Shown here: piece by piece, positions 2,420 to 54,134 of the stretch
How the letters are laid out: the number at the start of each line of letters is the position of its first letter
Numbering within the stretch: position 1 is the first letter of the stretch
Assembly: GCA_026387355.1 (NCBI GenBank)
Contig: JAPLLW010000008.1
Coordinates: 1,016 to 65,015, forward strand
Direction of reading: 5' to 3'
From: Candidatus Omnitrophota bacterium
Lineage (GTDB): Bacteria; Omnitrophota; Gorgyraeia; Gygaellales; Profunditerraquicolaceae
Length of the DNA: 64,000 nucleotides
The notes under the pieces: model-generated
Database searches by the model: none
What the model saw: only the letters and a program-made list of their open reading frames with translations
Told to the model about the DNA's origin: nothing
Position numbers and translations under genes: made by a program

Positions 2420-2557
2420 GGCCTTTTTTAATCCGGGATTCCGATTTGTTAAAAGATAATGAATTTCTAGATTTTGGTCAATTAGCTGCGTATCTTTTAC
2501 CGTTAAAAACCTTCCACGCCTTGCAAATAAGATTTATATACCCTAGAAGGAGGAAAA

Positions 2558-2938: not shown

Positions 2939-2953
2939 GCTCTTATGTAAAGA

Positions 2954-4327: not shown

Positions 4328-4333
4328 TAATCA

Positions 4334-6504: not shown

Positions 6505-7587
6505 ATGAGAATCATTTTAGCTACACCTCAGGATAAAACAGTATTGGGCGTAATCGGTTCTTATTGTAAGGCGGCACTCCAGGCTCAAGGAAATGAAGTA
6601 TCGGTTTTTGATTTCCGGAAAGAGTTTTATGCAAAGAGCACATTAATGCAGCGCTTAAAATCGGCAGTCAGATCTGCTCTTCCTTTCCTGCCTTCTTTGC
6701 GCGAATTACCAGCGGTAAAATTGGTAATAGATGATAAGGTCAACCGAATGCTGCTGGATCGTTCTGTAAAATTCAAGCCGGATATATTACTGGTACTTTG
6801 CGGTGAGAACATATCTCTTGATACCCTGATTAAGATAAAGAATGTATCAGGCACATTTACAGTTAACTGGTTTTACGATACCTTAATCTCTCCGCATAGA
6901 GAAAGTTTAGTGAGATCAGTGCTGCCTTGTTACGATTATTTGTTTATAGTGGATTCTCTCGGTGTGTTAAAGCGAATAAAAGCAGACTTTAATAAAGTCG
7001 CTACCCTGCCTTTGGCCTGTGAACCCTTGGTGCACAAGCGCGTAGTTTTATCGGATAAAGAAGCTAGGATATACGGCAGTGATGTTGCTTTCGTTGGGAC
7101 AGTAACCCCGGAACGCGAAAAGATATTAGAAGAATTAAGCGGGTTTAACCTCAAGATTTGGGGGCGCTGGAGCCGTAAATCTGCTTGCTTAAATAGTTGT
7201 TACCAAAAGAAAGATGTATATGCAGAGGAAGCAGTTAAGATCTATAACTCTTCTAAAATAATACTTGATGTTCATTCGCTTTTCGGAAGAGAGAAAGAAA
7301 TCTATAATGTTACCCCGCGATTATTTGAGGTCCCTGCATCAGGAGCATTTTTATTAACAAACTATGTTTCTCAAGTGAGCGATTTTTATAAGATTGGTGA
7401 AGAAATTATCACCTATGGAGATGTAAATGAGTTAAAGAACCAGGTTTCTTATTATCTAAAGCATCCCGATGAACGGATAAACATAGCCGAAAGAGGCTAT
7501 CAGAGGGCGCATAAAGAGCATACTTACGCAAATCGCGTGACAAAGCTTCTGGAGACCGTAAAAAATATGTACACGAGTATTAACTAA
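6505..7587 (+). CDS. CgeB-like / GT1-like glycosyltransferase-family protein
   Basis: C-terminal region 'LFEVPASGAFLLTNY...GDVNELKNQVSYYLKHPDERINIAERGYQRAHKEHTY' resembles the C-terminal domain of CgeB/DUF3880 GT1-like proteins. Confidence 0.4.
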   Translation: MRIILATPQDKTVLGVIGSYCKAALQAQGNEVSVFDFRKEFYAKSTLMQRLKSAVRSALPFLPSLRELPAVKLVIDDKVNRMLLDRSVKFKPDILLVLCGENISLDTLIKIKNVSGTFTVNWFYDTLISPHRESLVRSVLPCYDYLFIVDSLGVLKRIKADFNKVATLPLACEPLVHKRVVLSDKEARIYGSDVAFVGTVTPEREKILEELSGFNLKIWGRWSRKSACLNSCYQKKDVYAEEAVKIYNSSKIILDVHSLFGREKEIYNVTPRLFEVPASGAFLLTNYVSQVSDFYKIGEEIITYGDVNELKNQVSYYLKHPDERINIAERGYQRAHKEHTYANRVTKLLETVKNMYTSIN

Positions 7588-8738
7588 TGAGTAAAATTAA
7601 TATTTTGTACTTGCATGAAGCATCTGAAGTAGCAGGGGCGGAGAATAGCCTGATTAACTTAACAGCTAAGCTGAGCCGCTTGGAGTTTAATCCGATATTT
7701 ATCTTACCCAAAGATGGACCACTATGCACAGAACTAAAGAAATTAGGCGTAGAGGTTAATTTTATTTCATTTCCTAAGATAAGAGAATTACGTGGTGTCT
7801 TAAAGAGCATTAAGCACATTTTTCAGCTGATCAATAAAAAAGGAATTGATATTATTCATTCAAATAGCATTCGTACTCATATTTATGGAGCCATAGCCGC
7901 GAAGCTTAAGAAAATACCTATTATCTGGCATCAGAGGAACTTAATTACTGATGAAAAGATCGATCTGGATAGGTTGCTATCTTTTATGCCGGATAAGATT
8001 ATTTGTAATTCTTTCGCTATAGCCAGGCGTTTTCTAAGAAGAAAAAGCCTTCCATGTAAGGTAGCGGTAATCCATAACGGGGTTGATACAGATAAATTTA
8101 ATTCCGTCATAGATGGTAAAAGTATACGTAATGAGTTTGGCATTAAGGATGATGAATTTGTTATCGGGATTGCCTCTAGGTTTAACTTTATGAAAGGCCA
8201 TGAAACTTTCTTCCAAGCCGCAAAAATCATACTTAATAAGAAAAACGTTTTTAGGGAGAATTTACGATTCTTGGTAGTTGGGAGTTCAGTTTTTAATGAA
8301 GATAAACCAAGAGAAGATTACCTTAAAAGGCTGATAAAAGAGCTAGGTATTGAAGACAGAGTAATCTTCACCGGGCTTAGGAGCGATATGCCTAAGGCTT
8401 ATGCGTCAATGGACATCTTTGTGTTGGCTACCGAAGCAGAGGCATGCGGCAGGGTAATTCTTGAGGCTATGGCATCAGGTAAGCCTGTGATAGCCACTGA
8501 TTCCGGGGGTAGCCCGGAGATGGTTAAAGACGGCGTTTCGGGGATTTTGTTTAAGCCGCATGATTCTAATGAGTTGGCAGAAAAGCTTTTATTTTTAATT
8601 GAAAATAAGGATCTGGCAAAGAAAATGGGGAGTAATGGGGTAAGGATAATTCAGGAGAGCTTTAGAATTGAAGATAATGTCAAGAAGACTGAAGTAATTT
8701 ACCATGAATTAATGCAAAAATATGATAGATCAAAATAA
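7587..8738 (+). CDS. Glycosyltransferase family 1 (GT4-type, retaining)
   Basis: 'EACGRVILEAMASGKPVIATDSGGSPEMV' E-x7-E-type GT1 C-terminal motif. Confidence 0.8.
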   Translation: MSKINILYLHEASEVAGAENSLINLTAKLSRLEFNPIFILPKDGPLCTELKKLGVEVNFISFPKIRELRGVLKSIKHIFQLINKKGIDIIHSNSIRTHIYGAIAAKLKKIPIIWHQRNLITDEKIDLDRLLSFMPDKIICNSFAIARRFLRRKSLPCKVAVIHNGVDTDKFNSVIDGKSIRNEFGIKDDEFVIGIASRFNFMKGHETFFQAAKIILNKKNVFRENLRFLVVGSSVFNEDKPREDYLKRLIKELGIEDRVIFTGLRSDMPKAYASMDIFVLATEAEACGRVILEAMASGKPVIATDSGGSPEMVKDGVSGILFKPHDSNELAEKLLFLIENKDLAKKMGSNGVRIIQESFRIEDNVKKTEVIYHELMQKYDRSK

Positions 8739-9906
8739 GACGTCTAGAGAAAGATCATTTTATTCGACCAAGTCGTCATGGTTTAAGAGCGCTCTTAAAA
8801 ACTTATATTTTTCCCTAAGAAGCTTGACTCTAACGCTTGTATTCCGAACCAGAAAGGCAGCAATTATCAGACAGGAGGATGTTCTTTCAATTGTAGTTAT
8901 TAGAATCGACAGGATAGGGGATCTGGTGGTTTCTTTTCCGGCGATCAAGGCCTTAAAAGAGATCTTTCCGCGCAGCCGCCTTGCGGTTATGGTTAGGCCT
9001 CAGCTAATGCCTCTCTTAAAGAATACACCCTGGATTGATGAGCGTATATCCTATAACGGTTTCTTGAATTCGATTGCAATTTTGCGTAGGAAGCATTTTT
9101 ACCTCGCAGTAGATTTGTTAATCGACTATCCGCTTAAGACTGCCTGGCTTTGTTTTTTTAGTGGGGCAAGATTAAGATTAGGTTTTGATATAGCCGGTAG
9201 GGGGAGATTGTTTAATCTCAGTCTGCGTCCAAGCCGCAAGGAGCAGAGACTTGGTGAACATACCCTAGAATTAGTTAAGTTCTTGGGAAGTGTTTTAGGT
9301 GTGTCTCAAGAGAAAATTCCTACTTCGGATTCGTGTATCTTGTTTTCTCGGGAAGATAAAGAATTTGCCGAAGAGTTTTTACGTGTTCGGGGGATAAAAA
9401 GTGATGACTTGATAATTGGCATACATCCGGGTGGGCAATTTCCTAGCCAGCATTGGATATTAGGCCGGTTTGCTGCATTAGCCGATGAAATTTACCAAAA
9501 ACATAGGGCAAAGATATTAATCTTGGGAAATTCCAACGAAAAAGAGCTGGTTGACAAGCTCAGTTCATTAATGAAGATAAAGCCAATTTTAACTGTAGGT
9601 CTTTCTTTGAATAAACTCGCCGCAATTATCGCACATTTTGATATACTGGTTTGTAATAATTCAGGGTTGTTGCATATTGCAGCCGCCTTAGAAATACCGA
9701 CTGTATCGACGATGGGTCCGACGCACCCGCAACTCTGGTCACCTAAAGGAGATAACCATATCGTACTAAGAAAAGAATTAGCCTGTAGCCCTTGTAACAG
9801 GCCTGTATGCGCCAGGCATGATTGCATGAAGTTAATTACTGTAGATGAAGTTTTGAGTGGGGTTGAGAACCAGATAAGTAAAATAGAAAATGCTAAAGTC
9901 AGTTAA
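8722..9906 (+). CDS. Glycosyltransferase family 9 (heptosyltransferase-like)
   Basis: 'ILSIVVIRIDRIGDLVVSFPAIKALKEIFP' N-terminus and 'LVCNNSGLLHIAAALEIPTVSTMGPTHP' C-terminus are typical of the RfaF/RfaC/WaaQ family. Confidence 0.7.
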   Translation: MIDQNKTSRERSFYSTKSSWFKSALKNLYFSLRSLTLTLVFRTRKAAIIRQEDVLSIVVIRIDRIGDLVVSFPAIKALKEIFPRSRLAVMVRPQLMPLLKNTPWIDERISYNGFLNSIAILRRKHFYLAVDLLIDYPLKTAWLCFFSGARLRLGFDIAGRGRLFNLSLRPSRKEQRLGEHTLELVKFLGSVLGVSQEKIPTSDSCILFSREDKEFAEEFLRVRGIKSDDLIIGIHPGGQFPSQHWILGRFAALADEIYQKHRAKILILGNSNEKELVDKLSSLMKIKPILTVGLSLNKLAAIIAHFDILVCNNSGLLHIAAALEIPTVSTMGPTHPQLWSPKGDNHIVLRKELACSPCNRPVCARHDCMKLITVDEVLSGVENQISKIENAKVS

Positions 9907-9908
9907 GG

Positions 9909-10976
9909 ATGTATATGAGTAAACCATTTTTTTACTGTCCAGATTGTAGAGGAGACCTATCGCTTCAGGATAACGCATATTTTTGCCTGCGGTGCTCTTC
10001 TCGTTGGCCCGTTAAGCAGGGTATCCCTGTTTTTATAAAGAATGAATTGCCTTATTGGGCGGAAATACCTAAGGCCGAAGCAATTCGATTTAATATTTTG
10101 GCGCAAGATTTAGGTTGGCGGGAAGCAATGAGAAAATCCCTTCCTGCTGGTTTGCAGGAATTCATATCAGATAAAGATAGGGTTGGCTGGAAATATTTTA
10201 TTGAATCCGATATCTCCGGTAAAGTTCTCGATGTCGGAAGCGGTTGGGGGGCTCTCGCCTTTTCTTTTGCGAAAAACTGTGAAGCAGTCTATGCCTTAGA
10301 GCCGGTCTGGGAAAGGGTAAATTTCATACGCATCAGAGCAGAGCAGGATAGAGAAGGTAATCTATTTCCGGTTTGCGCAGACGCTCTCAATTTGCCATTT
10401 CCGGATAATTACTTTGACCTAGTTATTTTTAACGGGGTCTTAGAGTGGCTAGGTTGTTCCGACTTAAGGCTTAAGCCAGATATTGCGCAGGAAAAAGGAT
10501 TAAAAGAGGCGCAAAGGGTATTAAGGCCCGGAGGATCTCTTTACATAGGCATCGAAAACAAGCTCTCTTTTTTTTATTTTCTTGGGGTTAAAGACCCGCA
10601 TAGCAGGTTGCGTTTCGCTACTTTAATGCCAAAGAAAATAGCAAATCTTTATTCGAAATTATTAAAAAAGAAGGAATATAGAACCTATATTTATTCCATG
10701 CCTGGTTACAGGGAATTGCTATCTAAGTCAGGGTTTAAGAGTGTATCTTTTTTTCTGCCTGCCCCAGGCTATATAAAATTTAAACATATTGTTGCCTTGG
10801 ATAAAGATAGAATTAACGATATAGATTATTTCTTCAGATTGATTAATTTCAGAATAATATTCTCACCAGCTTTATTCCGGATATTTTTTGTTCTTGTTAA
10901 AATGTTATTTAGTCCTTTTCTTAGGAATATTTTTAAGCTTTTTGTGCCTGACTATCTTATAATTGCTAAGAAATAA
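9909..10976 (+). CDS. Class I SAM-dependent methyltransferase with N-terminal Trm112-like zinc ribbon
   Basis: N-terminal 'CPDC...CLRC' followed by 'QGIPVF'; SAM motif I 'VLDVGSGWG'; motif post-I 'ALEPVWERV'; 'LRPGGSLYIGIEN'. Confidence 0.65.
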   Translation: MYMSKPFFYCPDCRGDLSLQDNAYFCLRCSSRWPVKQGIPVFIKNELPYWAEIPKAEAIRFNILAQDLGWREAMRKSLPAGLQEFISDKDRVGWKYFIESDISGKVLDVGSGWGALAFSFAKNCEAVYALEPVWERVNFIRIRAEQDREGNLFPVCADALNLPFPDNYFDLVIFNGVLEWLGCSDLRLKPDIAQEKGLKEAQRVLRPGGSLYIGIENKLSFFYFLGVKDPHSRLRFATLMPKKIANLYSKLLKKKEYRTYIYSMPGYRELLSKSGFKSVSFFLPAPGYIKFKHIVALDKDRINDIDYFFRLINFRIIFSPALFRIFFVLVKMLFSPFLRNIFKLFVPDYLIIAKK

Positions 10977-10996
10977 ATGCTAGGGTAAGAATTAAG

Positions 10997-12025
10997 ATGA
11001 AGAATGAATTAGCCAAGATTATTGTTGATCTCTATCGTAAAGACTGCGAAGTAGATATTGATATCCAAGATGTAAGTTTCTTATTTTTCTCAAGCAGAAT
11101 GAGCGATATACTGTTTGTATTCATTAAGGGGAATAAGCAACCGAAGTATGTATTAAAAGTCAGTCAAGACGAGATAAAAATTGAGCATATAAAAAAAGAG
11201 TGGGACATTTTAACTGGTATTAGCAGATTCAATGCCGGGATTTTACATAAAACTTTTCCTCTCCCGCTTTATAGCGGCGTGGTTAATGGGCATTATTTAT
11301 TCGTTGAAGAAGCTTGTAAAGGGATTCCTTTGGTTAATTTTATGTATTCTAAAAGAAATAAACGCAAAGAGATCTGCAATGTTTTACGTAGCACAACCGA
11401 ATGGATTTCGGAGCTACATCGCGTCTCATTCTTAGAAAATGTTTCAATCGATAATTTCTTATCAGCGGGATGGGTTATGAAAATAATAGAGTCATTCGGT
11501 AGTTTACATAATTTAACAGATCAGGAAAACCAGTTTATTAGGGAATTAATGCAGTTAAATAATTTGAAGGTCCCATTAGTAACGCAGCACAGTGATTTCT
11601 CGCCTTATAATATGTTTTGCGATAAAACTGGCAAAGCTTTATTTGTTTTAGATTGGCAATATTCAGTTTTAAGAGGTTCGCCGCTTGTAGATCTGTTAAA
11701 TTTTTTAGTGTTTTCTCAATCCCTACTTTCAAACCCAGGAAGATCAGCCAGGAAAAGAATTAACCTAAAATCATTTTTTGCCAACATTTATAATATACTT
11801 CCGGATCAGGACGACTTTATAAATACTTTCTACGGAAATGGCTGGTTCTCTAGGTTTGCCAGCGACTGCATTAAAGAATACTGCAACAAGATATCTCTGG
11901 ATAGAGGAGTATTGAGACTTATTTTTATTCTGTTTATCTTCCGGCACTTATATAATAAAAAAGATTTTTTTGCAACTTTTGTAGGAAAAGGTGATCCGGT
12001 TTTTATTAAAGCTATGAATACTTAA
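10997..12025 (+). CDS. Kinase-like protein (aminoglycoside phosphotransferase / choline-kinase fold)
   Basis: Brenner-type catalytic motif 'HSDFSPYNMF' and 'FVLDWQYS' (the DFG/IDxE equivalent). Confidence 0.5.
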   Translation: MKNELAKIIVDLYRKDCEVDIDIQDVSFLFFSSRMSDILFVFIKGNKQPKYVLKVSQDEIKIEHIKKEWDILTGISRFNAGILHKTFPLPLYSGVVNGHYLFVEEACKGIPLVNFMYSKRNKRKEICNVLRSTTEWISELHRVSFLENVSIDNFLSAGWVMKIIESFGSLHNLTDQENQFIRELMQLNNLKVPLVTQHSDFSPYNMFCDKTGKALFVLDWQYSVLRGSPLVDLLNFLVFSQSLLSNPGRSARKRINLKSFFANIYNILPDQDDFINTFYGNGWFSRFASDCIKEYCNKISLDRGVLRLIFILFIFRHLYNKKDFFATFVGKGDPVFIKAMNT

Positions 12026-12051
12026 GACAGTTTATATGTAAATTTAATACT

Positions 12052-13072
12052 ATGAAAGATGTATACAAGAAGATTCTGATAATTAATCTCGGCAGTATCG
12101 GCGATATACTTTTATCTACTCCGGCTTTAGGAGGAATGAAAACATGTTTTTCCGGATCTCAAATCTCCATGTTGGCTATAAAGAGAGCCCATTTTTTGAC
12201 AAGGGGCTTGCTTTATATAGAAAAATGCTCATTTTTTTGTACGGGGGGTTAGAAATTTCTTAAAAGATTTAAAGACGCTGCTAGGATTAAGAAAATAATC
12301 TTATGATTTAGCAGTGAATATGCGCACTCTTGTTTCATGATGGGGAGCTCAGAAGATTAGGCTGTTTTTAGCTATAATTAATCCGTACCTTAAGGCAAAA
12401 AGTAATGCTAGCGCAAGAGGTAGTTTCTTTGATATAAACATAAAATAGAGTGATATGGGTGATAAATACGAGATGGAGTATGGTATAGAAATTGTAGAAG
12501 CAATCGGAGCGGAGGTTAGAGATAAGAAAATAGATTTGTTTGTAAATAGCCTTGAAGCCCGTAAGATCGATCAAATTCTTGAGCAAGAAGGCTTAGCTAA
12601 AAGCGATACGCTTGTCGGTATACATCCGGGGGGGGCAATTTCCAAGCCAGCGTTGGATATTAGAGAGGGTTGCTGAATTAGCCGGTAAGATTGCTCAAAA
12701 ACATAAGGTAAAAATATTGATTTTGGGGCATTCTAGCATAAAGACCTGGCTGATAAGATTGTTGCATTAATGAAGATAAAGCCAATTTTAGCCTTAGGTA
12801 TTTCTTAAAATAGGCTTGTTGCGATTATCGCACATTTTGATATACTGGTTTGTAATAATTCAGGGCCTTTGCATATTGCTGCGAGCTTTAGGATGCCTAT
12901 AGTATCGACGATGGGGCCGACGCATCCTTATCTCTGGCTGCCTATGGAGGATAACTATATTGTGCTTAGGAAAGGACTTTCTTGCAGCTCTTGCAGCAGG
13001 CCTGTTTGTCACAGACATAAATGTATGGAGTTAATTTCGACAGATGAAGTCTTACAGGTGGTTGAAATTTAA
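12052..13072 (+). pseudogene. Degenerate duplicate of the GT9 heptosyltransferase gene at 8722..9906 (frameshifts and stops)
   Basis: Three short ORFs (12052-12252, 12455-12676, 12869-13072) each align to successive parts of the 8722..9906 product, e.g. 'PIVSTMGPTHPYLWLPMEDNYIVLRKGLSCSSCSRPVCHRHKCMELISTDEVL' versus 'PTVSTMGPTHPQLWSPKGDNHIVLRKELACSPCNRPVCARHDCMKLITVDEVL'. Nucleotide stretch 12769-12890 closely matches 9570-9690. An in-frame TAA and indels interrupt the reading frame. Confidence 0.75.
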
Positions 13073-13098
13073 ATCAACAGATTGAAGAAAAGTTAGGT

Positions 13099-14247
13099 TT
13101 GATTAGAATGAACAAGAGAACGCTTTTGGTTACCTATGATTTTCCTCCGATTGTAAGCGGCATAGGTAGTTTTTTTTACAATACCTGGAGATTTTTGCCT
13201 AGTGCTGATAATTTTATTTTAGCACCGAGGGTTAAGGGGGCAGAGGCCATCGATAATAGTGGCAGAGTTAAGGTATTTCGTTATATCAATTGGTTTTCCT
13301 CACCCGCGATTAGATCATTGATTCTATTATTTTATTTACCTCTTTTGTTAACGCGCGAAAGAATAAATACGCTTATTTGCGCTGTCCCGGTAAGTATAGG
13401 AGTTATCGGATTGGGATTTAAAAAGTTTTTTCACCTACCCTATTGCGTATTTTATTACGGAGGAGAATTTGACAAGTATAAGCGCAATAAAATATTTATG
13501 GGTATAATTAAAATGGTTGTTAGAAATGCAAGCTACGTTATTACGAATAGCGGATATTCCAGTAAAGAAGTAGAAAAGTTTGGAATAGATACGAGCAAAA
13601 TCATTAAGATTACTCCTGGAGTTGATACGGAAAAGTTCAGGCCGGGGATAGATTGTTTTTTATTAAAGAAGAGGTACGGGCTCGAGGGTAAGAAGGTGTT
13701 ACTTACAGTTGCAAGGCTGGTGAAGAGAAAAGGCGTAGAGGTGGTTATTCAGTCGCTACCTAAAATATTGGATGCATGTCCTGAGGTTATTTATTTAATC
13801 GTTGGAACGGGTGAAGAGGAAGTTTATTTGAAAAGGTTAGTAAAAGAAAAAGGGCTGGAGGAGAAGGTAATTTTTGTTGGTTTTGTCAGCGATGAAGAAT
13901 TGCCTAAATACTATAATTTGTGTGATATCTACGTTATGCCTAATATAATAACCGAAGGAGATGAGACATTAGAGGGTTTCGGTATCTCATTCGTTGAGGC
14001 CAGCGCTTGTGCAAAACCCTGTATTGGTGGTTTATCAGGGGGTGTTGAGGAAGCCGTGGAAGAAGGAAAGACGGGGTTTTTAGTCAATCCCAGTAATACC
14101 GATATATTAATTGGTAGAATCATTTGGCTGCTTAATGATGAGAAGTTAAGGCGCAGTATTGGTGATAATGGTCGACAGAAGACAGCTAGTGATTTTAAGT
14201 GGCAAGATAGAGCGCAAAAGCTAAGGGATATTGTTGATGCTATATAG
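13099..14247 (+). CDS. Glycosyltransferase family 1 (GT4-type)
   Basis: 'EGFGISFVEASACAKPCIGGLSGGVEEAV'; 'VARLVKRKGVEVVI'. Confidence 0.8.
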   Translation: MIRMNKRTLLVTYDFPPIVSGIGSFFYNTWRFLPSADNFILAPRVKGAEAIDNSGRVKVFRYINWFSSPAIRSLILLFYLPLLLTRERINTLICAVPVSIGVIGLGFKKFFHLPYCVFYYGGEFDKYKRNKIFMGIIKMVVRNASYVITNSGYSSKEVEKFGIDTSKIIKITPGVDTEKFRPGIDCFLLKKRYGLEGKKVLLTVARLVKRKGVEVVIQSLPKILDACPEVIYLIVGTGEEEVYLKRLVKEKGLEEKVIFVGFVSDEELPKYYNLCDIYVMPNIITEGDETLEGFGISFVEASACAKPCIGGLSGGVEEAVEEGKTGFLVNPSNTDILIGRIIWLLNDEKLRRSIGDNGRQKTASDFKWQDRAQKLRDIVDAI

Positions 14248-14264
14248 TTAAAGGACAGAAGCAT

Positions 14265-15332
14265 ATGGAGAATTTAGAAGATAAATTCAGGGATCATAAA
14301 TTTGTTTGCCCAGGGTGCAAGGGTAAGCTGGATTATAGCAATGATTTGTTTTCATGTCCTCAATGTAAAAATAGCTGGCCGCTTGTAGAAGGCTTAGCGG
14401 ATTTTAGGGTTTCAAAAGATAAATACTGGGGTGAGCATCCGGAAGAGGAGATAGACAGGCTAATCCTACGTTGTAAACAGGTAGGGTGGTCTCAGGCGCT
14501 GAGGGATTTCTTTACCGTAAGTGATCCGGAATATTATGATTCAATTATAGATAAAATGAGGGCGAATTGGCATTTTCTTGTTCCTCTAGATAAAGATGCG
14601 CGAATTCTAGATGCGGGATGTGGTTGGGGCCCGCTCTCTTTTGAGTTAGCTTCTGTATATAAGGAAGTTATTGCTTTTGATATTACAATGCAAAGATTAA
14701 GATTTATCGATTTACGTAGAGTTAGCGAAGATTTAAATAATCTTACACCAGTATGTGGTCAGGTTAATCATCTCCCTTTTCCTGATGGACATTTCGATCT
14801 GGTGATTTTTAATGGGATCCTAGAGTGGATACCGGTGATGGAAAGCAAAATAAATCCATATCTTGCTCAGCTTCAGGCACTTAAGGAAGCAGCGCGCGTT
14901 TTGAAGAAAAGCGGCTATCTGTATTTAGCTATAGAGAATAGATGGTCAGTGATAAATTTCTTGGGTTTTAAAGATGCGCATTCCCATTTGCGTTTCGCGC
15001 CTTTATTGCCGCGATTCCTGGCAGATATTTATAGTAGAGTTGTTCGGAAAAAAGACTTTCGGGAATATACCCATACATATTGGCAGCAGGAAAAGATTTT
15101 AAAGGAAGCAGGTTTTTCTGAAACTAAATTTTATTCTCCATTACCTGCTTATCGTCGTTTTCAATTTATCCTACCGCTAAATAGAGTTTCAAGAACTAAG
15201 TTTTTTGTAAGACACCTGTTTCGGCCGCGGGATAACTTACAGGTATTTTTTTCTAGGATAATAAGGCTACCTTTTGTTCTTAATCTTACAAAATATTTCG
15301 TCCCAGATTTCAGTATTTTTGCCAAAAAGTGA
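14265..15332 (+). CDS. Class I SAM-dependent methyltransferase with N-terminal zinc ribbon (paralogue of 9909..10976)
   Basis: 'CPGC...CPQC' ribbon followed by 'EGLADF'; 'ILDAGCGWGPLS'; same domain order and length as 9909..10976. Confidence 0.65.
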   Translation: MENLEDKFRDHKFVCPGCKGKLDYSNDLFSCPQCKNSWPLVEGLADFRVSKDKYWGEHPEEEIDRLILRCKQVGWSQALRDFFTVSDPEYYDSIIDKMRANWHFLVPLDKDARILDAGCGWGPLSFELASVYKEVIAFDITMQRLRFIDLRRVSEDLNNLTPVCGQVNHLPFPDGHFDLVIFNGILEWIPVMESKINPYLAQLQALKEAARVLKKSGYLYLAIENRWSVINFLGFKDAHSHLRFAPLLPRFLADIYSRVVRKKDFREYTHTYWQQEKILKEAGFSETKFYSPLPAYRRFQFILPLNRVSRTKFFVRHLFRPRDNLQVFFSRIIRLPFVLNLTKYFVPDFSIFAKK

Positions 15333-15333
15333 A

Positions 15334-16233
15334 ATGCTAAAATATCTTATTGAAGACTATAATAATTATGACTATATTCTGCATAACGGGCAATACAGAG
15401 TCACTCTTTTTGTTTTCGAAAAGAATAATTATTACCCTCAGTATCTATTAAAGATATATTCCCAAGAGAATGCAGGTAATTTGAAGCAGTTACAGGGATT
15501 GTTGCAAAAAATAAACCTGTACAGTTTGGCGATACTTAAGGATTCTGTTCCAAAGCTGTTAAATTTACAGGAGTTCGGTAAATCGTGTGTAATTAAGGAA
15601 GAGTATGTTCAGGGGATACTTCTGGCAAGGTATGCCGAAGGAAGAGGGCTTGTATGGGAAAAGGATTTTTTTCTTAACTTGAGCCTAATTGCTGAATGGT
15701 TGGTTGCTTTGCATAAAAACTTTACTGTGGGAGAAATTTCGTTCAGCAAGGATAAAGTCGCGCTTTTATTGAAAGATACGCAGCAGTTTTTAGATACGGG
15801 ATTTTTAAATTTAAAAGATGGCTTGATAACTATTCCTACGGTAATTTCACATGGTGACCTTATGCCGATGAATGTTATAAGAGTTAAAAACAAAATCTCC
15901 GTTTTAGATTGGGATAAGATGAAAACTGAGGGCTTGCCTTTATGGGACTTGCTTACCTTCATACTTCACTATCTCCATTCGCGCTATCGATTTCAAATAG
16001 AAGGCGTGTATTTGAAGCCAGAAGTTTTCTTAAAGTATTTTAGTTTGATCTACCAGAAAGATAACGCTATATCTAGATTTGTAAAAGAGAGAGTAGGGTA
16101 TTATTGCTCGAGTTTAAAATTGAATGATTCCCAAAGAGATCTTTTAATATTGCTCTGGATTTATGATATGCTTTATCTGTGCGGTGGTAAAACAAACAAT
16201 CCTGTTTCTTTGCCCAGGCTATTAAAACTATAA
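15334..16233 (+). CDS. Kinase-like protein (APH/ChoK fold; paralogue of 10997..12025)
   Basis: 'HGDLMPMNV' catalytic loop and 'VLDWDK'. The ATG at 15334 lies just after the upstream stop at 15330-15332, so it is preferred over the ORF-track start at 15274, which overlaps the previous gene by 59 nt. Confidence 0.5.
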   Translation: MLKYLIEDYNNYDYILHNGQYRVTLFVFEKNNYYPQYLLKIYSQENAGNLKQLQGLLQKINLYSLAILKDSVPKLLNLQEFGKSCVIKEEYVQGILLARYAEGRGLVWEKDFFLNLSLIAEWLVALHKNFTVGEISFSKDKVALLLKDTQQFLDTGFLNLKDGLITIPTVISHGDLMPMNVIRVKNKISVLDWDKMKTEGLPLWDLLTFILHYLHSRYRFQIEGVYLKPEVFLKYFSLIYQKDNAISRFVKERVGYYCSSLKLNDSQRDLLILLWIYDMLYLCGGKTNNPVSLPRLLKL

Positions 16234-16246
16234 TATATTTTAGAAT

Positions 16247-16909
16247 ATGATTAAAAAGTTTTATCTCTGGTTACTTAAAGCTACCTCTAAACCTAAGGAG
16301 AAAAATGAGTATTCTAAGGGGCATTGGCAGAATGCAATTAGAGAAAAAGTTACTTCTTTATGCGGGGGTATTAATGGCAAGATTTTAGAGGTCGGCTGCG
16401 GAGAGGGTTTATTTTTAGAACATTTAGCTCAAGAGAAACCTAATCTTGAGCTTTGGGGTATCGATAATAGTCAGATAAGAATTAATGAGGCACAGAGTAA
16501 AAAAAAGGCGGGAGATCTAACTAATTTAAACTTTGCTGTGGAGGATGCCACCAAGCTTTCTTTCTCCGACGGAAGTTTTGAAGCGGTAGTCTGTATCAAT
16601 GTTCTTTTTAACCTTCCTTCAATTGAACTGCTCAAGCAGGTACTTAAGGAGATGAGGCGGGTGTGTAAAACATCCGGGAAGATTTATTTTGATTTCCGTA
16701 ACGCGCTGAACCCGCTACTTTTTTTGAAATACCGTTTAGCTCCTTTTTATGATGAAACTGTTAAGGATCTTCCACTTAAGACATATTCACAAAAACAGAT
16801 TTCAGATATACTCAAGGATTTGGATATCAAGATTATTAATAAATCGTATATTGGTTTGCCTTTTAAATTATTTGCACCTATTGTTATCATTGAGGCAGAG
16901 AGATGTTAG
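16247..16909 (+). CDS. Class I SAM-dependent methyltransferase
   Basis: 'ILEVGCGEGLFLEHL' motif I; 'AVVCINVLFNL'. Confidence 0.7.
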   Translation: MIKKFYLWLLKATSKPKEKNEYSKGHWQNAIREKVTSLCGGINGKILEVGCGEGLFLEHLAQEKPNLELWGIDNSQIRINEAQSKKKAGDLTNLNFAVEDATKLSFSDGSFEAVVCINVLFNLPSIELLKQVLKEMRRVCKTSGKIYFDFRNALNPLLFLKYRLAPFYDETVKDLPLKTYSQKQISDILKDLDIKIINKSYIGLPFKLFAPIVIIEAERC

Positions 16910-18084
16910 CCAAAATTCCTATTGCCGGAACCCCCATAGAATTTATGGATATATTTCGTGCCATTACGCGAAGTATAAATAAAGGCGCAACCCATGATTT
17001 TATTACAATCATGGAGCAGTTTTTGGGCACAAGATTTATTCATTTTACAGATTCCGGTTTAGCTTCATTTTATATAATCCTTGAGGCGCTCAAAAAGATT
17101 AGTGGTAAAAAAGAGGTGATTTTGCCGTCGTATACTGCCGGAAATTTGATAGTAGCGATACAAAAAGCTGGCCTAGTCCCGGTGTTATGCGATATAAGCA
17201 TGGAAGATTTCAACCCAGACAGGGACTCTTTGCTGAAGGCCGTTACTTCAGAAACACTCGCCGTAGTTCTTGTGCATATGTTTGGGATTCCGATTAAAGA
17301 TATAGAAGGGCTTAGGAATAAAATCCCCAGAGATGTTTTTATTATCGAAGATTGTGCTCAATCTTTTGGGGCTAGAGTGGGAGGTAAAAGCGTAGGGCGC
17401 TTCGGCGACATAAGTTTTTTTAGTTTTAATCGGGGTAAAAATTTGCCGACTTGCGGCGGAGGGTGTTTTGCCACTAGTTCCGGGAATTTATTTGAAGCGC
17501 TAATTCATGAAACAGAAAGATTTACTGCTAAGGAGAATTCACGGGAGATTTCTAAGACTATTTTAAAGACTTTAGCCATTTCATTGGCTGTTAGGCCTTT
17601 GGTTTATGGAATGGGGTATTTTTTTATCTCTCGCTTTAAGGATTTGAGTCTGATTAGTGATTTTGAGGTTAAAGATTATTCAAGTTTTCAAGCCTCCCTG
17701 GGGCTTGAGTTATATAAGAAAGCGGCTAGCCTTTACCATTCAAGGAATAAAAACGGGATGTTTCTTATTAATAGCCTTAAGGTTAATCAAAACCTGATTA
17801 TACCAAACATATCAAAAGATATCTTTCCTGTTTTTAATCGGTTTCCTCTTGTTTTTAAAAACCCGGAAAAAGTTACTCTGGCGCAAAAAAAGCTCTGGCA
17901 GGTTGGCATAGAAAGTTCTCAGATGTATTGCAGGCCGCTTTATCAGATGTTTAATTTGGGTTGTAAATTAGAATCTTTTCCTAACACCGAATATTTTTAT
18001 CCACGGCTTTTGACTCTGCCTGTACATCCAGGGGTAAAAGAAAAAGATCTAGCTAATATGACAAGGGTAATTAATAACTTATGA
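16903..18084 (+). CDS. DegT/DnrJ/EryC1/StrS-family PLP-dependent sugar aminotransferase or dehydratase
   Basis: 'IIEDCAQSFGA' and 'SFFSFNRGKNLPTCGGG' (PLP-lysine region). Confidence 0.75.
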   Translation: MLAKIPIAGTPIEFMDIFRAITRSINKGATHDFITIMEQFLGTRFIHFTDSGLASFYIILEALKKISGKKEVILPSYTAGNLIVAIQKAGLVPVLCDISMEDFNPDRDSLLKAVTSETLAVVLVHMFGIPIKDIEGLRNKIPRDVFIIEDCAQSFGARVGGKSVGRFGDISFFSFNRGKNLPTCGGGCFATSSGNLFEALIHETERFTAKENSREISKTILKTLAISLAVRPLVYGMGYFFISRFKDLSLISDFEVKDYSSFQASLGLELYKKAASLYHSRNKNGMFLINSLKVNQNLIIPNISKDIFPVFNRFPLVFKNPEKVTLAQKKLWQVGIESSQMYCRPLYQMFNLGCKLESFPNTEYFYPRLLTLPVHPGVKEKDLANMTRVINNL

Positions 18085-19235
18085 TACCAAAGAGAAACTT
18101 AAAAAGGTTTTTAGGTAAAGCCATAAAGCAGCCGGGATATGCGCTTAAGGTTTTAAAAAAGCGTGTTGAGGCAAGCTTAAACTACAAATTGGGTGTGCCG
18201 GCAAAGGTTTTCCCGGAGTCGATTACTTTATTTTTAACCCATCAGTGTAATCTACGCTGCCGCATGTGTGGACAGTGGGGGGATAAAGGGGTTACCAGAA
18301 AGTTCTCCGTAGAGACCGCTAAAGAGCACCTTCAACCGGAGGAGCTGCGGCGTTTTATAGACGAGATTGCTGATTTTAGGCCGAGTATAACACTCTTTGG
18401 TGGAGAGCCATTGATTTATCCAGACTGTACCGAACTTATTAGATATATTAAACAGAAGAAGCTGCACTGTCTTATGATTACCAATGGTTCTCTTCTTGAG
18501 GCTCGTGCAGAAGAGATTGTTAAAAGCGGTTTAGATGAGCTGAATGTTTCTTTAGATGGCGCTTTAAGTCTGCATGATGAAATACGGGGGATGCCGGGGT
18601 TATTTGATAAGATTATGCGTGGATTGAAGCAAGTAGAGCATTATAAAGAAAAAGAGAAAAAGAATAAGCCACTTGTAAATTTACAATGCACGATCTCTAA
18701 GTACAATTATTTACATTTGGAAGAATTGCTTGGCGTAGCAGAAGAAGCAAAGGTTGATTCTTTAACATTTCATAATTTAATCTTTCTTGGAAATGAGTTA
18801 ATCCAAAAGCAAAAGGTTTTTGACGAATTGTTAAGTTCTAAATCCTGTGAGTGGGAGGGTTTTGTCTTTAATCCCGAGATAGACTCGGATATTTTATTTG
18901 AGAAGATCGAAAAGATAAGAGCCGGTCGTTACCGTTTTAATTTAGATTTTTACCCTAATTTCTCGCGCAGTGCCTTAAAGGAATACTATAATAATCCTAA
19001 TTATCTTCCTTCTGAATACTCAGCTCATTGTCTCAGCCCATGGATAGTTGCTTATGTTTTTCCCGATGGAGAAGTACGGCCGTGTTTAAATTTTAGTTAT
19101 TCTTTCGGGAATATCCACAAGAGAAGTTTTCGGGAGATTTGGTTTAGCGATGAGGCAATAAAATTCCGGCGCACACTTAAGCAAAACGGGCTTTTCCCGG
19201 TGTGCGTGCGTTGTACCGAATTGTACCGTTATTAA
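18081..19235 (+). CDS. Radical SAM protein with C-terminal SPASM/twitch-like Cys cluster
   Basis: 'CNLRCRMC' CxxxCxxC; 'FGGEPLI'; C-terminal Cys residues in 'HCLSPW', 'RPCLNF', 'CVRC'. Confidence 0.75.
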   Translation: MIPKRNLKRFLGKAIKQPGYALKVLKKRVEASLNYKLGVPAKVFPESITLFLTHQCNLRCRMCGQWGDKGVTRKFSVETAKEHLQPEELRRFIDEIADFRPSITLFGGEPLIYPDCTELIRYIKQKKLHCLMITNGSLLEARAEEIVKSGLDELNVSLDGALSLHDEIRGMPGLFDKIMRGLKQVEHYKEKEKKNKPLVNLQCTISKYNYLHLEELLGVAEEAKVDSLTFHNLIFLGNELIQKQKVFDELLSSKSCEWEGFVFNPEIDSDILFEKIEKIRAGRYRFNLDFYPNFSRSALKEYYNNPNYLPSEYSAHCLSPWIVAYVFPDGEVRPCLNFSYSFGNIHKRSFREIWFSDEAIKFRRTLKQNGLFPVCVRCTELYRY

Positions 19236-19243
19236 TTGCAAAT

Positions 19244-20419
19244 ATGCCTTACCAGAGAGAGAAAATTAAAATTGCCGAGGTGATCACCAGATTAGATCAG
19301 GGTGGATCGCCGGAAGTTGTTTTAGCGCTCTTAAGAGGTCTGGACCATGAACGTTACGCAGTAACATTAATTAGCGGTTTAACTATGAATATGGCAGATA
19401 ATTTGTCCGAAAACATTAAGGACAAAAGAATTAAGTTTATTTATCTCCCGTCTTTGGTTCGTAATATCAATCCCGTTCTCGATGCAATTGCTTTCTTTAA
19501 ACTTTACGGTATATTCAAAAGAGAAAGATTCGGCATAGTGCATACCCATACTTCAAAGGCAGGTGCATTAGGAAGATTGGCAGCAAAGTTAGCAGGAACT
19601 CCGGTTGTAATATACAATACCCATGGACATGTGTTTTATGGCTATTTTAACCAGTTTTTTAATAAACTAATTATGTATATTGAGAAATTTTTAGCTAATT
19701 TTTCGGATGCGATTATAACACTTTCGAAGAAAGAAAAAGATGATTTTGTCAGCCTAAAGATTGCCAAGCCGGATAAACTTAGAGTAATTTATAATGGAAT
19801 CGATTTAGATAAATTCGCAAATACGCAAGTTGATATTGAAAAGAATAAAAAGGAATTGGATTTGCCATTAGATTGTCCAGTGGTGGGTTTGATCAGTCGC
19901 TTGGAACCGGTTAAAGACCCGCTTGGTTTTATTGAAGCGGCTAAAATTATTTGTAGCGCTATACCTAATAGCTGTTTTCTAATTGTTGGTGATGGTTCTT
20001 TGCGTAGTAAGGTCGAGGAAAGGGCTAGGCAGCTTGGGATTAAAGAGAAGGTTATTTTTACTGGTTTTCGCGAAGACATTCCGGAAATCCTAAAGACGCT
20101 TGATTTGGTAGTGCTCTGTTCTCTAAATGAAGGCCTAGGTATTTTGCTAATTGAGGCTCAGGCAGCAGGAATACCCGTAATTGCTACGCAGGTAGGGGGA
20201 ATCCCAGAGGTGGTTATCGACGGAGAAACAGGGATTCTTGTATTACCTGGTAAACCTGAGGCGCTAGCAAAGGCAGTTATTGGATTATTACAGGATAGGC
20301 CTCGTCTTTTACGCATGGGAAGATCTGCACAGGCTTGGGTAAGATCAAGATTTAGTATTGCTTCTATGTTACGGGAATATTCAGATCTTTATGAAAAACT
20401 TATCCTTAAGAATGCTTAA
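19244..20419 (+). CDS. Glycosyltransferase family 1 (GT4-type)
   Basis: 'KIAEVITRLDQGGSPEVV' N-terminus; 'EGLGILLIEAQAAGIPVIATQVGGIPEVV'. The start at 19244 is chosen over the ORF-track start at 19202, which overlaps the upstream gene. Confidence 0.8.
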   Translation: MPYQREKIKIAEVITRLDQGGSPEVVLALLRGLDHERYAVTLISGLTMNMADNLSENIKDKRIKFIYLPSLVRNINPVLDAIAFFKLYGIFKRERFGIVHTHTSKAGALGRLAAKLAGTPVVIYNTHGHVFYGYFNQFFNKLIMYIEKFLANFSDAIITLSKKEKDDFVSLKIAKPDKLRVIYNGIDLDKFANTQVDIEKNKKELDLPLDCPVVGLISRLEPVKDPLGFIEAAKIICSAIPNSCFLIVGDGSLRSKVEERARQLGIKEKVIFTGFREDIPEILKTLDLVVLCSLNEGLGILLIEAQAAGIPVIATQVGGIPEVVIDGETGILVLPGKPEALAKAVIGLLQDRPRLLRMGRSAQAWVRSRFSIASMLREYSDLYEKLILKNA

Positions 20420-21845
20420 AAAAATCATTTTTATTATTCTTTTTGTTTTAGTTTTAACTCAAAGTGCATCTTTAGCCGAAGATTATTATAATCTAGCCGG
20501 ATGCATTCACGTAAATTCAAACGTCGGAAAAGGAAGATATTCGCTAGAAGAGATTATTGGTTTGGCTAGGTCTAATGGTATTCAGATAGTTATATTAGGA
20601 GATATACTTACTTCTAGGGTGGAGTACGGTATTTGGCCTTTGCGTAATATCTTAAAAGTCTTTGATGATAGCAGCTCTTTGTTAAATTACGGAGTAAGCA
20701 AATATTTAAATAAAATTAAAAGTTTTACTAATGATATATCGGATATTATTATAATGCCGGGAATAGAAGTGGCTCCTTTTTATTACTGGGCCGGTACTCT
20801 CCTTAAGAGGGATTTAGTTCTTCATGATCCTAGCAAGCATATGTTTATCGCTGGCTTAGATAAACCATCTGATTTATTGGGGATGCCTGTTATAGGTAAT
20901 CATAACGCAGGCAAATATGGTCTAATATCGATAATTCTAGCTTGGCCATTATTGGTTATGGGAATTGGCGTATATTTGTTTTTTAAAATACCCGTTAAAA
21001 AGGAAAGGAGAACGGTCGGCATTATCTTTTTATCTCTAGGGGTTATTTTCTTCATAAATAATTTTCCGTTTAAAAAGGCTATGTTCGATGCATATAGCAT
21101 AAAGAACCGGATTTTTTATTACCAGCAGCTGATAGATTATGTAAATAAAAAGGGGGGAGTTGTTTTTTGGCTCCAGCCTTGTGGGGAGTCAGGCGGTGTT
21201 TATAAGGGGGTTAAGTATGAGACATTGCCCTTTACGGAAGACCTGTTTTACACCCAAGGATATACCGGATTTTCCGTGTTTTACGAAGGAGAAGAAATGG
21301 TTAAGCCGATGGGCCCGTGGGATAAGCTATTACTTGAGTATTGTCTGGGCAAAAGAAATAGGCCTGTGTGGGCAATAGGCGATATGGATTACAGTTACGA
21401 GGAAGAAAACCATAAGAACTTCGGCGAGGTGCAGACGGTTTTTCTGGTAAAAGATAAAACCAAGGAAGCGGTAGTCAGGGCCCTTAAAAACGGGAATATG
21501 TATGCTTATTATTCCCGCGACCTGAAGAATCAATTGAGGCTGGATAAGTTTGAGGTCCGCGATAGGCTTACGGGGTCTTCTGCCATAATGGGCCAAGAGG
21601 TTTCTTGTTTTTCGCCTGCTGAAATAGCTATTAATATCTCAGGTCCTGAGGCTATTAGGGGGGGGTCTTCTTTAAGGCTTATTCGTAATGGTATGGTTAT
21701 CCAGGTCTTCCAGATAAAGAATTTACCCTTTAACACGGTTTTTATTGATGATTATTTCGTAAGCAGAGAGAAGTGTTATTACCGGTTGGAGGTAGAGGGG
21801 ATTGTGGCTAATCCTGTATTTGTTACTTTTAAAGACCTAAAATAA
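20391..21845 (+). CDS. Membrane-anchored hypothetical protein with a possible degenerate PHP-like region
   Basis: N-terminal signal/TM 'MKNLSLRMLKKIIFIILFVLVLTQSASLA' and a central TM pair. 'CIHVNSNVGKGRYSLEEIIGLARSNGIQIV' faintly resembles the start of a PHP phosphoesterase domain, but no full HxH motif is present. Confidence 0.35.
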   Translation: MKNLSLRMLKKIIFIILFVLVLTQSASLAEDYYNLAGCIHVNSNVGKGRYSLEEIIGLARSNGIQIVILGDILTSRVEYGIWPLRNILKVFDDSSSLLNYGVSKYLNKIKSFTNDISDIIIMPGIEVAPFYYWAGTLLKRDLVLHDPSKHMFIAGLDKPSDLLGMPVIGNHNAGKYGLISIILAWPLLVMGIGVYLFFKIPVKKERRTVGIIFLSLGVIFFINNFPFKKAMFDAYSIKNRIFYYQQLIDYVNKKGGVVFWLQPCGESGGVYKGVKYETLPFTEDLFYTQGYTGFSVFYEGEEMVKPMGPWDKLLLEYCLGKRNRPVWAIGDMDYSYEEENHKNFGEVQTVFLVKDKTKEAVVRALKNGNMYAYYSRDLKNQLRLDKFEVRDRLTGSSAIMGQEVSCFSPAEIAINISGPEAIRGGSSLRLIRNGMVIQVFQIKNLPFNTVFIDDYFVSREKCYYRLEVEGIVANPVFVTFKDLK

Positions 21846-21884
21846 ACCTGTTGATTAAAAGAGGCGTTAATATATAATAGTAAC

Positions 21885-54046: not shown

Positions 54047-54134
54047 TGTATTTATAGCGGGTGGCTGCTGATATGGGATGGATCAGCAGACAGGACCCGC
54101 TAAGAAAAGAATAAAAATAAAAAGGAGAAATAAG

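Follow-up and report, generated by a model that had tools for sequence, protein, structure and literature searches.

A polysaccharide operon of the Wzx/Wzy type in Candidatus Omnitrophica carries two pairs of genes encoding a zinc-ribbon methyltransferase (MTase) and an APH-fold kinase, and we propose with moderate confidence that in such a pair the kinase and the phosphate methyltransferase together attach methyl-phosphate to every repeat unit, beside the action of GT9-family transferases, without capping the chains. To our knowledge, methyl-phosphate on bacterial glycans is known only from a few enterobacterial O antigens, where it is a chain-length and export signal whose synthesis relies on two dissimilar MTase-kinase enzymes. 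One of them, ORF6-O7, has an MTase that belongs to a much larger family; this family is nearly always paired with a different, APH-type kinase, and the methyl-phosphate tag may be far more widespread than is known.

Gene content of the module

The operon lies in the stretch of DNA analysed here (64,000 nucleotides, hereafter the window), and the gene order across the module is GT9, MT1, K1, GT9 pseudogene, GT4, MT2, K2 and MT3. All ORF positions given in an earlier note on this DNA could be confirmed, with every ORF on the + strand, and the gene junctions, spaced by 1-30 nt or overlapping, indicate a single operon. A GT4-family glycosyltransferase (7587..8738; Pfam Glycos_transf_1, E = 1e-41, plus Glyco_transf_4) overlaps the start of the first GT9 gene by 17 nt. 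Downstream lies the remainder of the conserved type-2 cassette (16903..24216, assigned with Pfam), which encodes a DegT aminotransferase, a radical-SAM/SPASM protein, a GT4, a conserved 495-aa protein, WbqC, a PIG-L deacetylase and a WecA-like initiating transferase, all of them families found repeatedly around the MTase-kinase pair in other phyla.

The intact GT9-family glycosyltransferase, GT9-A (8722..9906), is confirmed as a GT9 domain protein by Pfam (Glyco_transf_9, 97 bits) and is the counterpart of the distal GT9 in the conserved type-2 cassette, with its best matches in loci L031 (4210-5325, 46%), L023 and L020. GT4 and GT9 domains also occur fused in 710-730 aa proteins of other genomes: Pfam resolves GT4, GT1 and GT9 domains in one chain in the 712-aa protein of L008, and the similar 710-730 aa proteins of L018, L021 and L022, identified by profile search only, match the GT9 profile over their full length. 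The remnant termed GT9-B (12052..13072; tblastn against the intact GT9, E = 3e-56) contains at least three frameshifts, at least four in-frame stops and a G8 tract at 12629-12636. Its 3′ half is 77% identical at the nucleotide level over 439 bp to GT9-A, its closest relative, and its 5′ half clusters with the MTase-proximal GT9 of type-2 cassettes. What the earlier note took for a decayed GT9 copy is therefore a genuine GT9 pseudogene but not a simple copy, the grouping of its halves indicating a chimera of two GT9 types. An assembly artefact was considered as its source and excluded, since the sequence is 100% identical in three independent assemblies from other sequencing runs. The pseudogene is followed by a second GT4-family glycosyltransferase (13099..14247; Pfam Glycos_transf_1/GT4, E = 1e-43).

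MT1 (9909..10976; Methyltransf_11, E = 1.4e-17) and MT2 (14265..15332; Pfam class I MTase, E = 2e-16) are zinc-ribbon class I MTases of the type-1 and type-2 subfamilies, respectively. MT1 combines an N-terminal four-cysteine, Trm112-like zinc ribbon, a class I SAM MTase domain and a C-terminal extension, which carries a hydrophobic helical insert consistent with action at the membrane; we propose it to be a phosphate O-methyltransferase. The N-terminal CxxC...CxxC ribbon that had been noted in both MTases is real, its cysteines (C10, C13, C26 and C29) being invariant throughout the family and the ribbon forming four short strands in the AF2 model. Trm112-dependent enzymes have tRNA, rRNA and proteins as substrates, whereas the family described here is located in glycan loci. 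A further difference from Trm112-activated class I MTases (Haloferax Hvo_0019-Trm112, PDB 6f5z) is that the ribbon is here fused in cis to the MTase. MT3 (16247..16909; Pfam class I MTase, E = 8e-21) is a small generic class I MTase that gives no match to an HMM of the ORF6-O7 MTase and is not related to that enzyme. Its counterparts (36-48% identity) directly follow the kinase in all type-2 cassettes, and in some Verrucomicrobia MT3 is fused to MTase::kinase (MTase::kinase::MTase fusions in L039, L085 and L055).

The kinases K1 (10997..12025, type-1 subfamily) and K2 (15334..16233, type-2 subfamily, 299 aa) show the features of APH/choline-kinase-like proteins (PF01636), namely a bilobal kinase fold, an HxDxxxxN catalytic loop and a second metal-binding Asp. 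Each matches Pfam APH at E = 1e-3 with 19.3 bits, below the gathering cut-off of 23.2 bits; among kinase family members, 36 of 37 match APH at E <= 0.01 (best E 6.5e-13). The key residues of K1 are K54, the hinge E104-E105...G109, H198-x-D200-xxPx-N205 and D219-W220, and K2 displays the motifs YLLKI, EE..G, HGDLMPMN and VLDW. Both proteins thus contain the HxD(L/F)xPxN loops reported from the letters (HSDFSPYN in K1, HGDLMPMN in K2), followed by VLDW, and the catalytic Asp and Mg-binding residues, whose loss the earlier note would have counted against a kinase, are intact; K1 is proposed to be a glycan hydroxyl kinase. The mechanically called ORF of K2 begins at a TTG codon (15274), but the ATG at 15334, directly after the MT2 stop and already used in the earlier note, is the likely start, since the resulting 299-aa product fits counterparts of 282-298 aa. 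In comparison with APH, choline-kinase and AmiN-type kinases (PF01636 clan), the family is without a close PDB sequence relative, has its own invariant D-W pair and 'G.PL.DL' motif, and is obligately paired with an MTase in glycan loci.

The pairwise comparison that the earlier note had proposed for dating the duplication yields 37% identity between MT1 and MT2 (355 aa, E = 3e-86) and 24% between K1 and K2 (E = 3e-14). Each pair is nearer to other genomes and phyla (MTase 51-58%, kinase 29-41%) than to the neighbouring pair; the nearest relatives of MT2 lie in L031, L023 and L020 (55-58%) and those of K2 in L051, L025, L027 and L023 (39-41%). Because each is closer to counterparts in other phyla than to its neighbour, the two pairs are old paralogues and not the product of a recent tandem duplication, so that describing the module as tandemly duplicated is misleading.

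Coupling of methyltransferase and kinase across genomes

Relatives of the family occur in at least 336 stretches of species-representative genomes from more than 15 phyla, spanning Omnitrophota, Planctomycetota, Desulfobacterota, Nitrospirota, Verrucomicrobiota, Chloroflexota, Acidobacteriota, CPR bacteria, Firmicutes and archaea, and are located mostly in Wzx/Wzy loci. For coupling, 80 species-genome loci were surveyed with the MTase as the only seed, so that it was measured from the MTase side only. A kinase-like domain accompanies the MTase, by fusion or adjacency, in at least 73 of these 80 loci: it is fused to the MTase in 25 (plus L084 by Pfam), and its gene lies immediately downstream in 45 and immediately upstream in two. 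Split genes, which had been regarded as a non-canonical arrangement, are hence the commoner state of the family (47 split versus at least 26 fused). Fusions of the zinc-ribbon MTase to the kinase are found in P0137, P0142, P0144, P0166, P0179 and P0258, and a natural GT9::MTase::kinase triple fusion (P0139, 983 aa) reproduces in its domain order the gene order of the window.

The most recurrent neighbours of the pair are all polysaccharide-assembly genes, which speaks against the possibility, raised in the earlier note, that the MTases group with enzymes lacking any association with glycan loci. These fusions and adjacencies support a functional coupling of the MTase gene with the kinase-like gene, the two together making up a unit associated with glycans.

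Relation to known methyl-phosphate enzymes

ORF6-N of K. pneumoniae O7 is a proven methyl-phosphate terminator in which an MTase precedes a kinase (PMC11231755), and the window genes follow the same order, with the kinase downstream of the MTase. The family MTase HMM scores 57-88 bits on ORF6-type proteins, a set composed of sequences recovered by OCR from SI Fig. 9 and two real plasmid-encoded ORF6-type proteins. Reciprocally, the ORF6-O7 MTase HMM matches 91 of 93 family MTases (MT1 50.8 bits, MT2 49.0 bits), whereas of 40 other MTases from these loci only four are hit, none above 22 bits. Alignment of the two profiles with hhalign (99.85%, E = 1.3e-30, 274 columns) and the shared signatures 'GVLE(W/Y)', 'IEN..G.KYF.G..(E)DH' and 'P.PDY' likewise indicate that MTases of the MT1/MT2 type are specific homologues of the ORF6-O7 MTase domain. 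Identity along the hhalign alignment is about 19%, and the acceptor atom could therefore differ, being a sugar hydroxyl or amine instead of phosphate.

Homology of the kinases is less secure. The ORF6-O7 kinase has been described as having a weak AmiN/APH likeness, and its catalytic Asp (D441) is part of 'FIDAVPQN' (PMC11231755), where K1 has 'HSDFSPYN'. The family kinase profile gives no hmmsearch match to full-length ORF6-type proteins, hhalign (20%, E = 1e-3) recovers only collinear hinge, xDxxPxN and (D/E)xEW motifs, and a ranking test for this likeness was not significant.

WbdD of E. coli O9a and K. pneumoniae O3, in which a kinase likewise follows an N-terminal class I MTase and which acts on polyprenol-linked glycan, performs the chemistry proposed here, phosphorylation and subsequent methylation of the phosphate (PMC3482155). 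The earlier note had named WbdD as its model. Its kinase domain is of the ePK/Src-like type, which K1 and K2 do not share, the family MTase is not specifically related to the WbdD MTase, and neither the C-terminal coiled coil nor the ABC-dependent pathway of WbdD is found in the window locus. The methyl-phosphate idea gains real support, drawn from MTase homology to ORF6-N of K. pneumoniae O7 and not from WbdD.

Proposed function and alternatives

In our model, the products of the module would be cytoplasmic enzymes working at the membrane, with the undecaprenyl-linked repeat unit of a polysaccharide of the Wzx/Wzy-dependent route as their substrate. A GT9-family transferase would add a sugar, K1 or K2 would phosphorylate a glycan hydroxyl with ATP, and the partner MT1 or MT2 would methylate that phosphate with SAM, leaving a methyl-phosphate substituent; we infer the acceptor, the order of reaction and the product, as well as the connection with what GT9 makes. 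The two pairs probably serve two different acceptor residues or positions, and MT3 may add a further, unrelated methyl group. Since Wzy polymerises in the periplasm and the enzymes are without a coiled-coil ruler, every repeat unit would be decorated and no chain terminated. Two observations count against this scheme: it gives no account of the second MTase of type-2 units, and, the GT9 beside MT2 being a pseudogene, a strict sequence of GT9, kinase and MTase cannot hold for the second module in this strain.

The kinase and the MTase might instead modify the same glycan independently, yielding a plain or linker phosphate and an O- or N-methyl group elsewhere, with no methyl-phosphate ester. 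We consider this unlikely. Consecutive action on one group best accounts for a coupling that is close to obligate and for how often this MTase is fused to the kinase, and the specific relative of the MTase is a phosphate-methylating enzyme, a relationship that does not extend to the generic MTases of the same loci.

APH-fold kinases mostly use free small molecules as substrates, a point against the model. Action of the pair on a soluble precursor, whether as an ethanolamine/choline-type kinase and a phospho-base N-methyltransferase generating a phosphocholine-like substituent or as an anomeric sugar kinase in salvage, is nonetheless improbable: the ten neighbour families that recur most often include no cytidylyl-/nucleotidyl-transferase and no transferase of the LicD type, matches to PMT are limited to the generic SAM-binding core, the specific relative of the MTase is a glycan-phosphate MTase, and fusions to GT9 and to coiled coil plus GT2 polymerase modules favour a growing glycan.

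Still less probable is that the pairs here terminate chains or regulate their length, capping the non-reducing end as ORF6-O7 and WbdD do. In Wzy pathways chains are extended in the periplasm, at their reducing end, where a cytoplasmic capping enzyme could not reach them. The window locus encodes Wzx, Wzy, Wzc, Wza and WecA-like genes, with no Wzm/Wzt (in ORF6-O7 an exporter with a cap-binding CBM) near the module, and K1 and K2 end with the kinase fold, lacking the coiled-coil ruler (with or without GT2 modules) of the ORF6-O7 terminator; by a crude heptad score K1 is free of coiled coil. Across the 80 seeded loci, Wzt-like genes lie within 8 kb in only two, against 18 with Wzx or Wzy. These findings weigh against the chain-terminating cap suggested for this locus, even though both characterised MTase-kinase enzymes, WbdD and ORF6-O7, are terminators (PMC3482155, PMC11231755) and members of the same family in Cohnella (L010) and Methanoperedens (L092) hold the ORF6-O7-like terminator position after Wzm and Wzt with its CBM (Wzt_C), the Methanoperedens kinase-like domain being fused, as in ORF6-O7, to a coiled coil and two GT2 modules.

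The WaaP/WaaY-like phosphorylation of an LPS inner-core heptose added by GT9 enzymes, also suggested earlier, is very improbable: these core heptose kinases likewise have a protein-kinase-like fold and genes beside GT9-family transferases, but in the kinase comparison K1 and K2 showed APH features and neither WbdD-type nor WaaP/WaaY-type ones, with no membership of the Pfam Kdo/WaaP kinase family and no waa core-locus context, while GT9-A falls below all NCBIfam heptosyltransferase I/II/III cut-offs (65-104 bits versus 135-185 bits) and no ADP-heptose pathway genes occur within the window.

Returning to per-unit decoration, we tentatively suggest that the zinc-ribbon MTase and APH-type kinase make up a third and by far the most widespread class of glycan methyl-phosphate machinery, mostly decorating each repeat unit in Wzx/Wzy-dependent pathways and often hard-wired to GT9, of which the ABC-pathway chain terminators would be a specialised offshoot with an acquired coiled-coil ruler. 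If the chemistry holds, uncultured lineages would commonly carry phospho-methyl groups on their surface polysaccharides, a function could be assigned to some 1,700 'hypothetical' kinase clusters and to many 'UbiE-like' MTases, and the family would be a source of regiospecific glycan kinases and phosphate methyltransferases. Cultured carriers of the family include Cohnella.

Organization of the polysaccharide locus

The methyltransferase and kinase genes lie in a polysaccharide locus of the Wzx/Wzy/Wza type, along which gene assignments were made with Pfam. The plus strand encodes in succession a Wzc-like protein (275-2419), Wzy (2954-4327), Wzx (4334-5893), an acetyltransferase (5893-6498), a glycosyltransferase (GT; 6505-7587), a GT4 (7587-8738), an intact GT9 (8722-9906), the zinc-ribbon methyltransferase MT1 (9909-10976) and its partner kinase K1 (10997-12025), a GT9 pseudogene (12052-13072), a GT4 (13099-14247), a second zinc-ribbon methyltransferase, MT2 (14265-15332), with its kinase K2 (15334-16233), the small methyltransferase MT3 (16247-16909), DegT and radical-SAM (rSAM)/SPASM proteins (16903-19235), a GT4 and a 495-aa protein (19202-21845), and WbqC, PIG-L and WecA-like proteins (21885-24216). 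Every gene of the module region is on the plus strand and junctions are of 1-30 nt or overlapping, which indicates a single operon. A second Wzc-like gene (26730-28820, minus strand) precedes Wza (29451-30638), and the two Wzc-like (Wzz/GNVR/P-loop) genes flank the locus. Single-sequence phmmer searches, adequate for the ABC ATPase and weak for Wzm, found no Wzm/Wzt at the locus, and elsewhere the window carries housekeeping genes unrelated to the locus, with no ADP-heptose genes among them. An additional distant GT9 lies just beyond Wza (30904-32118), and a row of PNP_UDP_1, IF-2B (MtnA-like) and class II aldolase genes (54078-57128) resembles a methionine-salvage segment unrelated to the module.

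The elements listed in the earlier note (ORFs, ribbon, kinase motifs and GT9 remnant) are all present. The two zinc-ribbon methyltransferases can be aligned over their full length (37% identity, E = 3e-86), and the two kinases are 24% identical (E = 3e-14). The CxxC...CxxC ribbon does not vary across a 22-member methyltransferase family alignment, and the AF2 model (pLDDT 89) shows it as a small unit of four strands; both kinases carry the β3 Lys, the 'EE..G' hinge, HxDxxPxN and 'VLDW'. The GenBank annotation of MT1 (P0002, 282 aa, 79% of the ORF) begins downstream and leaves out the zinc ribbon; conservation within the family favors the long ORF as the probable gene. No module protein reaches the cut-off of any curated NCBIfam family. 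The sequence of K1 is that of NCBI protein NTZ63_02365, which places the window in a Candidatus Omnitrophica MAG.

Kinase identity and coupling to the methyltransferases

The proposed APH fold of the kinases was upheld by Pfam APH matches in 36 of 37 family members and by a confident AF2 model (pLDDT 93), and 75-78 of 80 kinase domains retain the catalytic residues. The suggested WbdD-like and WaaP-like assignments were not borne out: the Kdo/WaaP Pfam family is matched by 0 of the 37 members, and a WaaP-like core kinase was rejected. Searching PDB sequences with either kinase returned nothing useful. Searches by word index, whether with K1 or with the 37-sequence kinase alignment, recovered only K1 itself and one other protein; the family is visible only by exhaustive profile search, which with K1 and K2 yielded 1,727 cluster representatives at E <= 1e-3.

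The methyltransferase-kinase couple is a conserved unit. The kinase alignment offered no stretch conserved enough to seed a related-locus search, and loci were seeded on the methyltransferase alone, making the test of coupling unbiased. Methyltransferase relatives are encoded in at least 336 stretches of the species-representative genome collection; in the best 80, a kinase-like domain is fused to the methyltransferase in 25 (26 including L084, by Pfam), directly downstream in 45 and directly upstream in 2. Several kinase-profile matches are likewise single zinc-ribbon methyltransferase::kinase polypeptides, one of them (P0139) a GT9::methyltransferase::kinase fusion, and methyltransferase::kinase::small-methyltransferase fusions in some Verrucomicrobia match the MT2-K2-MT3 triad. 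A GT9 lies within 5 kb in only 16 of the best 80 loci, which are the closest relatives. Neighbors were clustered by single linkage, in which fusions lumped the GT, methyltransferase and kinase families and left only the smaller clusters usable; recurrent neighbors are GT2, DegT, Wzx, rSAM/SPASM, sugar-nucleotide dehydratases, Wzy, WbqC and WecA-like proteins. Wzx or Wzy occurs in 18 of the best 80 loci and Wzt-like ATPases in 2.

Origin of the two pairs and of the GT9 pseudogene

The earlier note had read the locus as a tandemly duplicated GT9-methyltransferase-kinase module. Pairwise identities to other loci rule out a recent tandem duplication, each pair being nearer to counterparts in other genomes and phyla than to its neighbor. 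MT1 and K1 are nearest to L007, L013, L011 and L014 (51-53% and 29-31% identity, respectively), and MT2 and K2 to L031, L023, L020, L027, L025, L051 and L018-L022 (50-58% and 34-41%), with Nitrospirota, Deferribacterota, Desulfobacterota and Planctomycetia among these nearest relatives. The pairs therefore represent two old subfamilies, type 1 (MT1-K1) and type 2 (MT2-K2). The type-2 pair belongs to a cassette ordered GT9, GT9, methyltransferase, kinase, small methyltransferase, DegT, rSAM, GT4, unknown, WbqC, PIG-L and WecA, which is syntenic with the window (16903-23182) in L018-L027, L031 and L051. This synteny spans Omnitrophota, Planctomycetia, Desulfobacterota, Nitrospirota and Deferribacterota, implying that the glycan-building block has been transferred horizontally as a whole. 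On the simplest reading, the two GT9 genes of a type-2 cassette have come to be separated by the type-1 pair, and one of these GT9 genes has been lost.

The presence of a radical-SAM/SPASM enzyme within a sugar cassette is unusual in itself. A conserved protein of ~480-495 aa recurs in at least 8 GT9/methyltransferase/kinase cassettes (window 20358-21845, L007 15066-16493, L008 6536-7996); it is unannotated, has no Pfam match, is probably glycan-related and is possibly a membrane protein. A second Omnitrophota contig, L013, also bears two different methyltransferase-kinase modules. There, a third kind of methyltransferase::kinase fusion (2400-4439) adjoins a type-1 methyltransferase-kinase-GT9 set, its zinc ribbon detached as a separate 71-aa ORF by frameshift or assembly error.

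The decayed GT9 copy recognized in the earlier note is indeed a pseudogene: its reading frame is broken by at least 3 frameshifts and at least 4 in-frame stops. Its sequence recurs with 100% identity in three independent assemblies built from other sequencing runs, ruling out assembly error. One frameshift stems from an extra G in a G8 tract (12629-12636) lying exactly in the conserved 'IHPGGQFPSQ' motif. Phase variation of glycosyltransferase genes is classically switched by poly-G tracts, but the pseudogene looks dead rather than switchable, because tract length is identical in the five Logan contigs covering it (L001-L004 and L006) and other lesions are present. Its 5′ half is the counterpart of the proximal GT9 of the type-2 cassette and the intact GT9 that of the distal one; the 3′ half shares 77% nucleotide identity with the intact gene, by which it has been overwritten or with which it has recombined. 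In L004 (ERR15302223), an independent assembly compared over window positions 9418-10093 and 12026-13050, the final ~200 nt of the pseudogene region have given way to sequence with 93% identity to the 3′ end of the intact GT9 continuing into MT1. The junction may mark a strain variant or may instead come from assembly across the GT9 repeat; it hints that the two GT9 copies are still recombining.

Relation to methyl-phosphate terminators and proposed pathway

ORF6-N of Klebsiella pneumoniae O7 (ORF6-O7) is a second experimentally proven methyltransferase-kinase, placing methyl-phosphate on terminal rhamnose; its kinase differs from that of WbdD and shows weak similarity to AmiN (PMC11231755). 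Six ORF6-type sequences, rebuilt by OCR from SI Fig. 9 of that paper, score 57-85 bits against the family methyltransferase HMM. The reciprocal ORF6-type HMM matches 91 of 93 family methyltransferases (MT1 50.8 bits, MT2 49.0, Cohnella 100.9, Methanoperedens 75.1) and just 4 of 40 other methyltransferases of the same loci, at <=22 bits; MT3 is not matched. Alignment of the two methyltransferase profiles with hhalign covers 274 columns (99.85%, E = 1.3e-30). Two real ORF6-type proteins located on plasmids by tblastn, from P. asturiensis pCC1524 (1457 aa) and C. braakii pF217-3 (649 aa), reach 86-88 bits on the family HMM, and both follow Wzm and Wzt. For the kinase part, hmmsearch gave no match, and the link is not significant with either the OCR'd partial sequences or the plasmid-borne proteins; hhalign against the ORF6-O7 kinase (20%, E = 1e-3) reveals collinear motifs only, among them xDxxPxN at the proven D441.

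Given the established anatomy, coupling, fusions, intact motifs, fold, methyltransferase homology and context, the best-supported model comprises three steps, whose acceptor, product and order we infer. A GT9-linked sugar would be added, an APH-type kinase would phosphorylate the glycan, and the zinc-ribbon methyltransferase would methylate the kinase-made phosphate, all on each Und-PP-linked repeat unit ahead of flipping. The main rival holds that the glycan is phosphorylated and independently O- or N-methylated. The window methyltransferases are of the same lineage as the proven methyl-phosphate enzyme; unlike ORF6-O7, the window system has another partner kinase, a zinc ribbon, split and duplicated genes and GT9 linkage.

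Chain termination in the window locus is less likely. In Methanoperedens (L092), rmlABCD, Wzm and Wzt (Wzt_C) precede a zinc-ribbon methyltransferase and a 1094-aa protein, in which a kinase-like domain (E = 4e-23) is combined with two GT2 modules and, at residues ~363-480, a coiled coil. The order in Cohnella hashimotonis (L010) is Wzm, Wzt (Wzt_C), methyltransferase, kinase-like protein, multi-GT protein and rmlABCD, the kinase-like protein having a charged helical tail with a crude coiled-coil score of 0.48 vs a cut-off of 0.6. The family thus occupies the terminator position in loci with an ABC pathway. In contrast to these relatives, the window pairs have neither ruler nor exporter, and the chief difference from ORF6-O7 is a Wzx/Wzy context without a ruler. 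WaaP-like core phosphorylation, too, is less likely, as is a soluble phospho-base pathway; a phosphocholine pathway was rejected, no LicC/LicD-like neighbors occurring among the ten most recurrent families.

The plasmids pCC1524 (L093) and pF217-3 (L094), the latter conjugative, carry complete ORF6-O7-type ABC-dependent rhamnan O-antigen-like clusters, with Wzm, Wzt, the methyltransferase-kinase terminator, GTs and rmlABCD. To our knowledge, a plasmid is not a usual location for such a cluster.
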